Source of the DNA: Escherichia coli
GTDB lineage: Bacteria > Pseudomonadota > Gammaproteobacteria > Enterobacterales > Enterobacteriaceae
Direction: 5' to 3' (one strand)
Length of the DNA stretch: 3,689 bases
NCBI RefSeq assembly: GCF_003334315.1
Contig: NZ_QOWR01000103.1
Shown: positions 1 to 3,689 of the stretch, one piece after another
Layout of the letters: the number at the start of each line of letters is the position of its first letter
Position numbering within the stretch: the first letter of the stretch is position 1
The notes under the pieces: model-generated
Seen by the model: the letters and a program-made list of their open reading frames with translations, nothing else
What the model was told of the DNA's origin: nothing
Databases searched by the model: none
Position numbers and translations under genes: made by a program

Positions 1-129
1 ATGAGCGGAAAACCAGCGGCGCGTCAGGGAGATATGACTCAGTATGGCGGTCCCATTGTCCAGGGTTCGGCAGGTGTAAGAATTGGCGCGCCCACCGGCG
101 TGGCGTGCTCGGTGTGTCCGGGCGGGATG
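1..129 (+). other. N-terminal PAAR-like motif region (single motif copy plus Cys-x-x-Cys), possible T6SS spike-binding remnant
   Basis: Residues 5-8 are literally P-A-A-R (nt 13-24), followed by QGD...[14 protein letters not shown], which resembles one repeat unit of a PAAR domain. Cys36 and Cys39 (CSVCPGG, nt 106-117) could be metal ligands. Only one motif copy is visible, whereas a full PAAR domain has about three. Confidence 0.45.
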
Positions 130-3100
130 ACTTCGGGCAACCCGGTAAATCCGCTGCTGGGGGCGAAGGTGCTGCCGGGCGAGACGGACCTTGCGCTGCC
201 CGGCCCGCTGCCGTTCATTCTCTCCCGCACCTACAGCAGCTACCGGACCAGGACACCCGCGCCGGTGGGAGTGTTTGGCCCCGGCTGGAAAGCGCCTTCT
301 GATATCCGCTTACAGCTACGCGATGATGCACTGGTACTCAACGACAACGGCGGGCGGAGCATTCACTTTGAGCCGCTGCTGCCGGGGGAGGCGGTGTACA
401 GCCGCAGCGAGTCAATGTGGCTGGTGCGCGGTGGTAAGGCAGCGCAGCCGGACGGCCACACGCTGGCGCGGCTGTGGGGGGCGCTGCCGCCGGATATCCG
501 GTTAAGCCCGCATCTTTACCTGGCGACCAACAGCGCACAGGGGCCGTGGTGGATACTGGGGTGGTCTGAGCGGGTGCCGGGTGCTGAGGACGTACTGCCA
601 GCGCCGCTGCCGCCGTACCGGGTGCTTACCGGGCTGGCAGACCGTTTCGGGCGGACGCTGACGTACCGGCGTGAGGCCGCAGGCGACCTGGCCGGGGAAA
701 TCACCGGCGTGACGGACGGTGCCGGGCGGGAGTTCCGTCTGGTGCTGACCACGCAGGCGCAGCGTGCGGAAGAGGCCCGCACCTCTTCGCTATCTTCTTC
801 TGACAGTTCCCGCCCTCTCTCAGCCTCAGCGTTCCCCGACACACTGCCCGGTACCGAATACGGCCCCGACAGGGGTATCCGCCTTTCGGCAGTGTGGCTG
901 ATGCACGACCCGGCATACCCGGAAAGCCTGCCCGGTGCGCCACTGGCGCGGTACACGTATACGGAAGCCGGTGAACTGCTGGCGGTATATGACCGCAGCA
1001 ATACGCAGGTGCGCGCTTTCACGTATGACGCGCAGCACCCGGGCCGGATGGTGGCGCACCGTTACGCGGGAAGGCCGGAGATGCGCTACCGCTACGACGA
1101 TACGGGGCGGGTGGTGGAGCAACTGAACCCGGCAGGGTTAAGCTACCGCTATCTTTATGAGCAGGACCGCATCACCGTCACCGACAGCCTGAACCGGCGT
1201 GAGGTGCTGCATACAGAAGGCGGGGCCGGGCTGAAACGGGTGGTGAAAAAAGAACTGGCGGACGGCAGCGTCACGCGCAGCGGGTATGACGCGGCAGGAA
1301 GGCTCACGGCGCAGACGGACGCGGCGGGACGGCGGACAGAGTACGGTCTGAATGTGGTGTCCGGCGATATCACGGACATCACCACACCGGACGGGCGGGA
1401 GACGAAATTTTACTATAACGACGGGAACCAGCTGACGGCGGTGGTGTACCCGGACGGGCTGGAGAGCCGCCGGGAATATGATGAACCGGGCAGGCTGGTA
1501 TCGGAGACATCGCGCAGCGGGGAGACAGTACGCTACCGCTACGATGACGCGCACAGTGAGTTACCGGCGACGACAACGGATGCGACGGGCAGCACCCGGC
1601 AGATGACCTGGAGCCGCTACGGGCAGTTGCTGGCGTTCACCGACTGCTCGGGCTACCAGACCCGTTATGAATACGACCGCTTCGGCCAGATGACGGCGGT
1701 CCACCGCGAGGAAGGCATCAGCCTTTACCGCCGCTATGACAACCGTGGCCGGTTAACCTCGGTGAAAGACGCACAGGGCCGTGAAACGCGGTATGAATAC
1801 AACGCCGCAGGCGACCTGACTGCCGTCATTACCCCGGACGGCAACCGGAGCGAGACACAGTACGATGCGTGGGGAAAGGCGGTCAGCACCACGCAGGGCG
1901 GGCTGACGCGCAGTATGGAGTACGATGCTGCCGGACGTGTCATCAGTCTGACTAACGAGAACGGCAGCCACAGCGACTTCAGCTACGATGCGCTGGACCG
2001 GCTGGTACAGCAGGGCGGCTTTGACGGGCGGACGCAACGTTATCATTATGACCTGACCGGAAAACTCACGCAGAGTGAAGATGAGGGGCTTGTCACCCTC
2101 TGGCACTACGATGCGTCGGACCGCATCACGCACCGGACGGTGAACGGCAACCCGGCAGAGCAGTGGCAGTATGACGGCCACGGCTGGCTGAGAGAAATCA
2201 GCCACCTGAGCGAAGGCCACCGTGTCGCTGTCCACTACGGCTACGACGATAAGGGCCGCCTGACGGGCGAACGGCAGACGGTGGAGAACCCGGAGACGGG
2301 GGAACTGCTGTGGCAGCATGAGACGAAACACGCCTACAACGAACAGGGGCTGGCAAACCGCGTCACGCCGGACAGCCTGCCGCCGGTGGAGTGGCTGACG
2401 TATGGCAGCGGTTACCTGGCGGGAATGAAGCTGGGCGGGACGCCGCTGGTCGAGTATACGCGGGACAGGCTGCACCGTGAGACGGTGCGCAGCTTCGGCA
2501 GCATGGCAGGCAGTAATGCCGCATACGAACTGACCAGCACATACACCCCCGCAGGCCAGTTACAGAGCCAGCACCTGAACAGCCTGGTATATGACCGTGA
2601 CTACGGGTGGAGTGACAACGGCGACCTGGTGCGCATCAGCGGCCCGCGACAGACGCGGGAATACGGCTACAGCGCCACGGGCAGGCTGGAGAGTGTGCGC
2701 ACCCTCGCACCAGACCTGGACATCCGCATCCCGTATGCCACGGACCCGGCGGGCAACCGGCTGCCGGACCCGGAGCTGCACCCGGACAGTACACTCACAG
2801 TGTGGCCGGATAACCGCATCGCGGAGGATGCGCACTATGTCTACCGCCACGATGAATACGGCAGGCTGACGGAGAAGACGGACCGCATCCCGGCGGGTGT
2901 GATACGGACGGACGACGAGCGGCCCCACCACTACCACTACGACAGCCAGCACCGCCTGGTGTTCTACACGCGGATACAGCATGGCGAGCCACTGGTCGAG
3001 AGCCGCTACCTCTACGACCCGCTGGGACGGCGAATGGCAAAACGGGTCTGGCGGCGGGAGCGTGACCTGACGGGGTGGATGTCGCTGTCGCGTAAACCGG

Positions 3101-3689
3101 AGGTGACGTGGTATGGCTGGGACGGAGACAGGCTGACGACGGTGCAGACTGACACCACACGTATCCAGACGGTATACGAGCCGGGAAGCTTCACGCCGCT
3201 CATCCGGGTCGAGACAGAGAACGGCGAGCGGGAAAAAGCGCAGCGGCGCAGCCTGGCAGAGACGCTCCAGCAGGAAGGGAGTGAGAACGGCCACGGCGTG
3301 GTGTTCCCGGCTGAACTGGTGCGGCTGCTGGACAGGCTGGAGGAAGAAATCCGGGCAGACCGCGTGAGCAGTGAAAGCCGGGCGTGGCTTGCGCAGTGCG
3401 GGCTGACGGTGGAGCAACTGGCCAGACAGGTGGAGCCGGAATACACACCGGCGCGAAAAGTTCATTTTTACCACTGCGACCACCGGGGCCTGCCGCTGGC
3501 GCTCATCAGCGAAGAAGGCAATACGGTGTGGAGCGCGGAATATGATGAATGGGGCAACCTGCTGAATGAGGAGAACCCGCATCACCTGCACCAGCCATAC
3601 CGTCTGCCGGGGCAGCAGCATGATGAGGAATCAGGGCTGTACTATAACCGTCACCGGTACTACGATCCGTTGCAGGGGCGGTATATTAC
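1..3689 (+). CDS. rhs: Rhs family core protein (RhsA-subfamily-like YD-repeat polymorphic toxin scaffold); 3' end truncated by the window edge, 5' start at nt 1 plausible but upstream not visible
   Basis: Frame 1 is open for all 1229 codons (no TAA/TAG/TGA). It is absent from the ORF track, consistent with having no stop in the window. Translation begins [42 protein letters not shown], carries many xYxYDxxGRL motifs, and ends ...[32 protein letters not shown]...[18 protein letters not shown], matching my recollection of E. coli Rhs core proteins. The paralogue (rhsA/B/C/F) cannot be assigned without alignment. Confidence 0.94.
781..831 (+). other. Serine-rich low-complexity linker ([17 protein letters not shown]) encoded by a pyrimidine-rich tract
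   Basis: Directly seen: + strand reads acctcttcgctatcttcttctgacagttcccgccctctctcagcctcagcg, strongly C/T-biased in an otherwise GC-rich gene. In frame 1 it gives 10 Ser in 17 residues. Confidence 0.7.
949..3138 (+). repeat. YD-repeat array (protein-level tandem repeats forming the Rhs beta-shell)
   Basis: Recurrent xYxYDxxGR(L/V/I) motifs in frame 1, e.g. [10 protein letters not shown] (nt 1084-1113), GYDAAGRL (1282-1305), EYDEPGRL (1474-1497), RYRYDDAHS (1531-1557), [10 protein letters not shown] (1663-1692), RYDNRGRL (1732-1755), EYDAAGRV (1918-1941), HYDLTGKL (2044-2067), GYDDKGRL (2239-2262), RYDEYGRL (2845-2868; the window reads RHDEYGRL), YLYDPLGRR (3007-3033). The motif Tyr residues recur about every 21 codons between nt 1285 and 2244. 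Confidence 0.88.
3460..3689 (+). other. RHS repeat-associated core domain (start of the C-terminal autoproteolysis module), partial
   Basis: Frame-1 translation [76 protein letters not shown] has the hallmark pattern of this domain (D-h-h-G-s...[21 protein letters not shown]). The window ends before the expected DPxGL motif. Confidence 0.8.

Follow-up and report, generated by a model that had tools for sequence, protein, structure and literature searches.

What does an Rhs gene deliver, when only its core is in view? The question is raised by a stretch of 3,689 nucleotides (nt) of Escherichia coli DNA (assembly GCF_003334315.1, contig NZ_QOWR01000103.1), which is called the window here. It holds most of an Rhs polymorphic-toxin gene and ends before the C-terminal tip. 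An earlier reading, made from the letters of the window, recognised the Rhs core and placed the potentially novel part of the locus outside it. That placement holds. The part in question, called the e4 tip here, is however a common and already annotated allele, its function aside.

We hold with high confidence that this is a vgrG-linked Rhs toxin gene at the rhsE locus. This confidence covers the identity of the gene, its architecture and its genomic context, and it excludes the action of the tip.

The gene and its place in the chromosome

Frame 1 of the forward strand has an ATG at base 1 and no stop in any of the 1229 codons of the 3689 bases, as had been read from the letters, and the protein ends at the edge exactly as then given. 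The remaining five frames have 12 to 50 stops each. From base composition, the chance of frame 1 being open is about 6e-16. In 2000 shuffles of the window, the longest open run had a mean of 227 codons and a maximum of 529. The fraction of G plus C (GC) at codon positions 1, 2 and 3 is 0.665, 0.492 and 0.771.

The window matches E. coli 2017.04.03CC (NZ_AP025205.2) best; there, positions 9001-12689 of the extracted locus L001 differ from it at a single base, and the gene is annotated as WP_229266115.1, 'RHS element core protein'. Everything said here about sequence downstream of the window is read from L001. By this comparison the window (1..3689, +) is the 5' 3689 nt, or the first 88%, of a 4209-nt rhs gene, holding codons 1-1229 of 1402 and remaining open at its 3' edge. 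The differing base is 2923 (+). It is C in the window, giving Pro975, and A, giving Thr, in L001, in three further extracts (L002, L008 and L010) and in the rhsE gene of K-12. The C could be a private single-nucleotide polymorphism or a sequencing error.

In L001 the order of genes is yncH, vgrG, rhs (1402 codons), dsORF-e4, a fragment of the insertion sequence IS1, ISEc5/ydcC and pptA. The upstream VgrG, which had been suggested as something to look for, matches TIGR03361 at 623 bits. The annotated start codon of rhs, with which the window begins, lies 66 nt past the vgrG stop and is preceded by AAGGA. The RefSeq name dsORF-e4 presumably goes back to the nomenclature of early papers on Rhs.

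The rhsE gene of K-12 (pseudogene b1456) is found at the same chromosomal site, between yncH and ydcC-pptA. Its remnant is 96.9% identical to the window over 2209-3686, but vgrG is missing, the core has lost its 5' 2.2 kb, and neither the tip nor the downstream open reading frame (ORF), ydcD, is that of L001. Judging by this comparison, the K-12 pseudogene is a deletion derivative of the yncH-vgrG-rhs arrangement. RhsD (K-12 b0497) comes with a tip of its own and with ybbC as its partner, whereas the window gene bears the e4 tip and dsORF-e4.

The core is already known, being a RefSeq-annotated member of the long-studied RhsD-E core subfamily. Of the 5426 complete E. coli genomes searched by megablast, 3901 contain it, and the median copy number is 6 per genome.

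The protein has the Rhs scaffold that had been read from the sequence. The NCBIfam model NF041261 (RHS_core, cut-off 2000) scores 2705 bits on the window and 2774 bits on the full protein, there over residues 1-1258, and the YD repeats and the Rhs_assc_core domain agree. The nearest solved structures are those of Tse5 (8cp6, E-value 5e-124), Pseudomonas protegens RhsA (7q97), Tse15 and Salmonella bongori Rhs; the paper on the last describes a different tip, an RNase (bioRxiv 10.1101/2024.02.26.582050).

The N-terminal 47 residues (1..141, +) form a PAAR-like segment, presumed to be the piece that docks on VgrG. They hold a single PAAR repeat at residues 2-29 (window 4-87), which aligns with the last repeat of a three-repeat PAAR protein (4jiv_D, 67-93 of 93, E 0.008). 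The Pfam model PAAR_motif (PF05488) gives no significant match here (E 0.1-0.3). The N-terminus has one repeat, matching the third of a canonical PAAR protein, rather than the full three-repeat cone.

In Tse5 the N-terminal fragment of 47 residues is likewise PAAR-like, and the protein cleaves itself at K47/P48 (PMC10684867). In the alignment, N47-P48 of the window protein (139..144, +) takes the position of this site, and P48 lines up with the P48 that opens the shell chain of Tse5 (8cp6_B, residue 1). By analogy, we infer N-terminal cleavage at N47-P48, and VgrG docking, for the window protein.

Next comes DUF6531 (136..369, +; PF20148, residues 46-123, E 3e-18), the N-terminal plug of the cage, a role that it has in Tse5 (PMC10684867). 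The array of YD/RHS repeats (958..2700, +) would form the wall of the beta-cage; here Pfam RHS_repeat covers residues ~320-900, with eight matches at E <= 0.001, and TIGR01643 marks 6 YD-repeat stretches. The Pfam 'RHS protein' region (3460..3570, +; PF03527, residues 1154-1190, E 2.6e-18) marks the start of the C-terminal plug.

Where the core ends and the tip begins

The last domain is the Rhs-associated core, an aspartyl-autoprotease plug, of which the window edge leaves the first 49 of 78 residues (3541..3689, +; TIGR03696). In the window, residues 1181-1229 match positions 1-46 of the 76 in the model. In the full protein, residues 1181-1258 match all of them (1-76 of 76).

The motif DPxG-X18-DPxG is known from the aspartyl proteases of enterobacterial Rhs proteins. 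In Tse5 its two aspartates are catalytic, and the cut falls after the Leu behind the second DPxG (PMC10684867). The protein in L001 carries the complete motif, as DPIG-X18-DPLG, with the PxxxxDPxGL ending. Its DPIGL begins 3 codons past the window (TQDPIGL), well within the ten or so codons in which a DPxGL had been forecast. The aspartates D1232 and D1254 are 3 and 25 codons past the window. By analogy with Tse5, both are predicted to be catalytic and the scissile bond is predicted to lie after L1258.

The sequence-only reading took the first DPxGL for the boundary between core and tip, and this needs to be corrected. DPIGL holds the first of the two predicted catalytic aspartates, and the boundary is the second motif, DPLGL, at L1258. 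RHS_core and Rhs_assc_core both extend to this residue, 29 codons past the window, and protein identity to the RhsD of the same genome holds up to it and is lost beyond. Because the core domains and the identity to RhsD end there, the tip consists of residues 1259-1402, and D1232 and D1254, like the predicted scissile bond, lie outside the window.

At the level of DNA the transition is less abrupt, as identity to rhsD fades gradually from codon ~1231 to ~1260. The GC fraction over 60 nt is 0.52-0.68 up to codon 1230, falls to 0.37 by codon 1240 and is 0.25-0.27 between codons 1250 and 1260, which is the sharp drop that was anticipated. The anticipated C-terminal domain of 100-200 amino acids (aa) is there as well, at 144 aa, and so is the small adjoining ORF. 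The orphan toxin/immunity modules that were said to follow sometimes are absent here: a six-frame search for DPxGL and YYDP motifs in the 2.7 kb past dsORF-e4 in L001 found none. What does adjoin the immunity gene in L001 is an IS1 transposase fragment (13637-13735) and an intact ISAs1-family element, ISEc5 (14063-15199; ydcC, the classical Rhs 'H-repeat').

Can the downstream sequence of another strain be trusted as the continuation of the window? The core is a mosaic, and this helps. Base 2923 aside, bases 1-3515 match two rhsD cores exactly, one in the same genome (L008 25628-29908, -) and one in strain 30EVA2. The L008 core shows 14 differences from the window, and 13 of them cluster in a junction of 94 nt (3516..3609, +). 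The copy at this locus in RM9088 (L009 3226-7435), a typical Rhs with the e4 tip, differs from the window at 80 sites and by 5 gaps. Since 1-3515 matches rhsD while the differences bunch at the junction, the sequence points to gene conversion between the loci rhsD and rhsE in the lineage of the window, over a tract of 3.5 kb or more.

The junction variant, taken as 3490-3689, is 100% conserved in ~100 genomes, and where checked it abuts the e4 tip. The sequence downstream in L001 is therefore supported as the continuation of the window. AMSCJX03 (L011 2512-6297) was considered as a case of the same junction with another tip, and was rejected, as an IS1 insertion has removed its tip.

The e4 tip and its partner

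The 144 aa of the tip are rich in Gly, and its GC content is 25-45%, for an average of ~0.4. Tip and dsORF-e4 are present in 1373 of the 5426 complete E. coli genomes, including O157:H7, and in 1355 genomes at >=99% identity. Searches for relatives of the tip gave 27 in a set of 5.8 billion clustered proteins and 23 in one of 1.84 billion cluster representatives. Those with a named source come from enterobacteria, and a few sit on metagenome or genome contigs. Those relatives that retain upstream sequence sit after a DPxGL motif, among the ones examined in full. One E. coli entry, P0027 (163 aa, 'YdcD family protein'), is made up of short stretches of the e4 tip and of K-12 YdcD in alternation; it has the look of two rhsE-locus alleles fused in an assembly or a consensus, and not of a real protein.

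The pair has been noted before. An in-silico survey of enterohaemorrhagic E. coli names it RhsE/RhsEI and remarks on the lipoprotein signal (PMC7216683). A literature search for dsORF together with Rhs returned nothing relevant.

Neither as a single sequence nor as a profile of 12 members does the tip match anything in Pfam, NCBIfam or the sequences of the PDB. Gly makes up 16% of it, four segments are Gly-rich and strand-like, there are two CX5C pairs of cysteines (54/60 and 135/141), and it has no hydrophobic stretch of 19 residues. The 12 aligned tips, at 25-85% identity, agree without exception at C54, Y56, D109, S119 and four Gly. No recognisable catalytic motif is found among these residues, which are mostly Gly and Cys.

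A structure model of medium confidence was built from the 12 sequences. It has the eight strands of a Vap-type beta-barrel, and its predicted fold matches are small, non-enzymatic barrels. In a Foldseek search of AFDB, Rhs proteins of Hafnia, Buttiauxella, S. bongori, Diaphorobacter, Yokenella, Luteibacter, Neisseria and Treponema have the same predicted fold at their C-termini, and so does an exoprotein of the ShlA/HecA/FhaA type (CdiA-type).

The resemblance to Vap is a fold-level lead, and not a family membership. None of the 12 tips has a Pfam match to Vap (PF05526), and the profile search of the PDB finds no Vap. The tip has two CX5C pairs and lacks the helix that Vap proteins have between beta4 and beta5. 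The Vap proteins of Rhodococcus equi (VapA/B/D/G) are also a different kind of protein from an Rhs cargo: actinobacterial virulence proteins, secreted via Sec and aimed at macrophage compartments. A literature search combining Rhs, Vap, Rhodococcus equi and type VI secretion systems (T6SS) found no link of Vap proteins to Rhs or T6SS toxins in the papers listed.

The partner, dsORF-e4, encodes 131 aa and starts 10 nt past the rhs stop in L001, behind AGGAGG, with a GC fraction of ~0.28. Its N-terminus, MKKYIFLVLFLLCG with the cut before C, is a lipoprotein signal, and this Cys is near-invariant. The Ser at +2 suggests sorting to the outer membrane, by the usual E. coli rule. Pfam matches are weak, to DUF4019 (PF13211, E 0.009) and DUF3887. 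A confident structure model (pLDDT, the per-residue confidence measure, is 88) has a predicted NTF2-like fold with a Foldseek match at E 5e-5. This fold match is one that dsORF-e4 shares with the small DUF4019 proteins, and it bears the lipoprotein signal in addition. A literature search for DUF4019 in connection with immunity found no link.

Distant homologues of the tip (P0031, P0035 and P0042, at 25-45% identity), from other genomes and from metagenomes, each have behind them an ORF that carries a signal peptide or lipobox and shares 19-40% identity with dsORF-e4. Two partner ORFs match DUF4019 in Pfam, the one in L007 without a mark of weakness and the one in L006 weakly. Because the distant tips each precede an exported ORF like dsORF-e4, the pairing of tip and partner is conserved across the family. 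From this conserved adjacency, dsORF-e4 is presumed to be the cognate immunity protein.

The L006 locus (819-3805; GCA_025642785.1, JANZKU010000040.1) has, past a distant tip and its DUF4019 partner, several small ORFs and a fragment of an RHS domain. This is possibly an orphan toxin/immunity array, unlike the locus of the window.

How might all this work? The YD repeats would form a closed cage around the tip, as in Tse5, RhsA, Rhs1 and TcC. Within the cage, D1232 and D1254 would cut the tip free after L1258, as happens in Tse5, RhsA and Rhs1 (PMC10684867). The N-terminus would seat the cage on the VgrG spike, a T6SS would fire it into a neighbouring cell, and dsORF-e4 would shield sibling cells.

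Tse5 (RhsP1) is the closest precedent. It has the same layout: a PAAR-like head of ~47 residues, a DUF6531 plug from P48, then a YD cage and an autoprotease with the motif DPxG-X18/19-DPxG. Its tip is small, non-enzymatic and acts on membranes from the periplasm, and the e4 tip is proposed to be alike, although the two tips have no detectable sequence similarity. In contrast to Tse5, the presumed immunity protein of e4 is a lipoprotein with a predicted NTF2-like fold.

The reading that we favour, at a little under even confidence, is that the e4 tip is non-enzymatic and works from the periplasm as an envelope toxin, probably by perturbing membranes. It is favoured because the partner is exported, the cysteines are of the disulfide type, there is no catalytic signature and the modelled barrel is Vap-like. 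A broader claim is held with more doubt: that e4 tips would be a widespread, unrecognised class of cargo, consisting of Gly-rich, disulfide-stapled Vap-like barrels that kill from the periplasm by way of membranes and are blocked by NTF2-like (DUF4019) lipoproteins.

Lipoprotein immunity proteins in the periplasm are typical of the amidases, muramidases and lipases of the T6SS. The tip could by that token be an enzyme on a periplasmic target, such as peptidoglycan, a lipid or a lipid-linked precursor, and the invariant Y56, D109 and S119 would suit one. We consider this improbable, given a tip that matches no Pfam or NCBIfam enzyme family and no PDB sequence, a modelled fold that matches non-enzymatic small barrels, and invariant positions that are mostly Gly and Cys. 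Action in the cytoplasm, for example as a nuclease or an NAD/ADP-ribosyl enzyme, with dsORF-e4 not being an immunity protein at all, has general experience on its side, since Rhs effectors are reported to be predominantly intracellular in action (bioRxiv 10.1101/2024.02.26.582050). It fits poorly with a partner that is kept beside distant tips, always with a signal peptide or lipobox, and with conserved cysteine pairs and no motif or fold of a nuclease or ADP-ribosyltransferase; it is decidedly unlikely. Finally, threading with I-TASSER gave RhsE's C-terminal end a likeness to an S-layer adhesin, with a TM-score of 0.71 to RsaA of Caulobacter crescentus (PMC7216683). That the tip would be an adhesin or S-layer-like module and no toxin is very improbable.

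Several points weigh against the envelope toxin, and against a working module in general. Most Rhs toxins reportedly act in the cytoplasm, so a tip at work in the periplasm would belong to a minority, for which Tse5 is the precedent. Homology to Vap was tried and rejected, with hhalign giving a probability of 0.1% against VapB, VapG and VapD. The collection holds no genome strictly identical to the window, and L001 is one base off. For secretion, autoproteolysis, toxicity and immunity of the e4 module alike, we infer from analogy. The rhs gene is also pseudogenised in RM9088 by a frameshift, and in the sister strain 2017.01.04CC (L010 3001-7209) by an internal stop; that copy differs from the window at base 1760. 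And no T6SS cluster is found at aspV and metV of NZ_AP025205.2, which we take to be the classical insertion sites for a T6SS in E. coli. These two sites, located by synteny with K-12 (L012, chromosome positions 3585000-3634999, and L014, 940000-989999), are both empty and K-12-like.

The module in its host, and what it may mean

The vgrG-rhs-immunity module may thus be without an apparatus to fire it in the host strain. Could it then be an unfireable relic, one that persists by recombination between Rhs cores, or by the protection that the immunity gene affords? This is a serious possibility, if not the one we would expect. The two empty sites argue for it, as does a small genome of 4.56 Mb. 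So do the broken genes in 2017.01.04CC and RM9088, the truncation by IS1 in AMSCJX03, and the O157 records, in which the dsORF-e4 stretch is split into two annotated 'hypothetical protein' genes. K-12 keeps Rhs genes and is not known to have a T6SS. Conversely, L001 has the ORF of 1402 codons, vgrG and the immunity ORF in intact form, the genome has a second vgrG-like sequence, and the evidence on the T6SS is limited to two candidate sites.

Some observations stand apart from these questions. NZ_AP025205.2 has, at ~890-903 kb (L013 452-12811), a decayed type III secretion cluster of the ETT2 type with many frameshifted genes, which is unrelated. The reverse strand of the window has an ORF of 353 aa with an ATG start (2560..3621, -), judged to be a chance product of the 65% GC. 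As a gene it was rejected, its length being within the range of the shuffles, and RefSeq annotates nothing there. Because shuffles at 65% GC reach comparable open runs, it needs no special explanation. Rfam and Tandem Repeats Finder gave no matches on the window.

The window by itself adds nothing new, as it is an ordinary, annotated Rhs core. What had been concluded from its sequence proved trustworthy, with the one correction that the boundary is the second DPxGL. The part worth further work is only the e4 tip with its lipoprotein partner, both of which are outside the window.

That pair is carried by a quarter of complete E. coli genomes, O157:H7 among them, and falls outside the domain libraries. 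A search of the literature found no experimental test of the function of either tip or partner. If the tip is indeed Vap-like and acts on the envelope, it would add a rare, periplasm-acting type of cargo to the Rhs toxins. It would also offer a tractable E. coli model for the effects of Vap-type barrels on membranes, and on the broader claim about a class of such cargo it would tie the mechanistically unresolved Vap virulence factors of R. equi to a lineage of antibacterial toxins.

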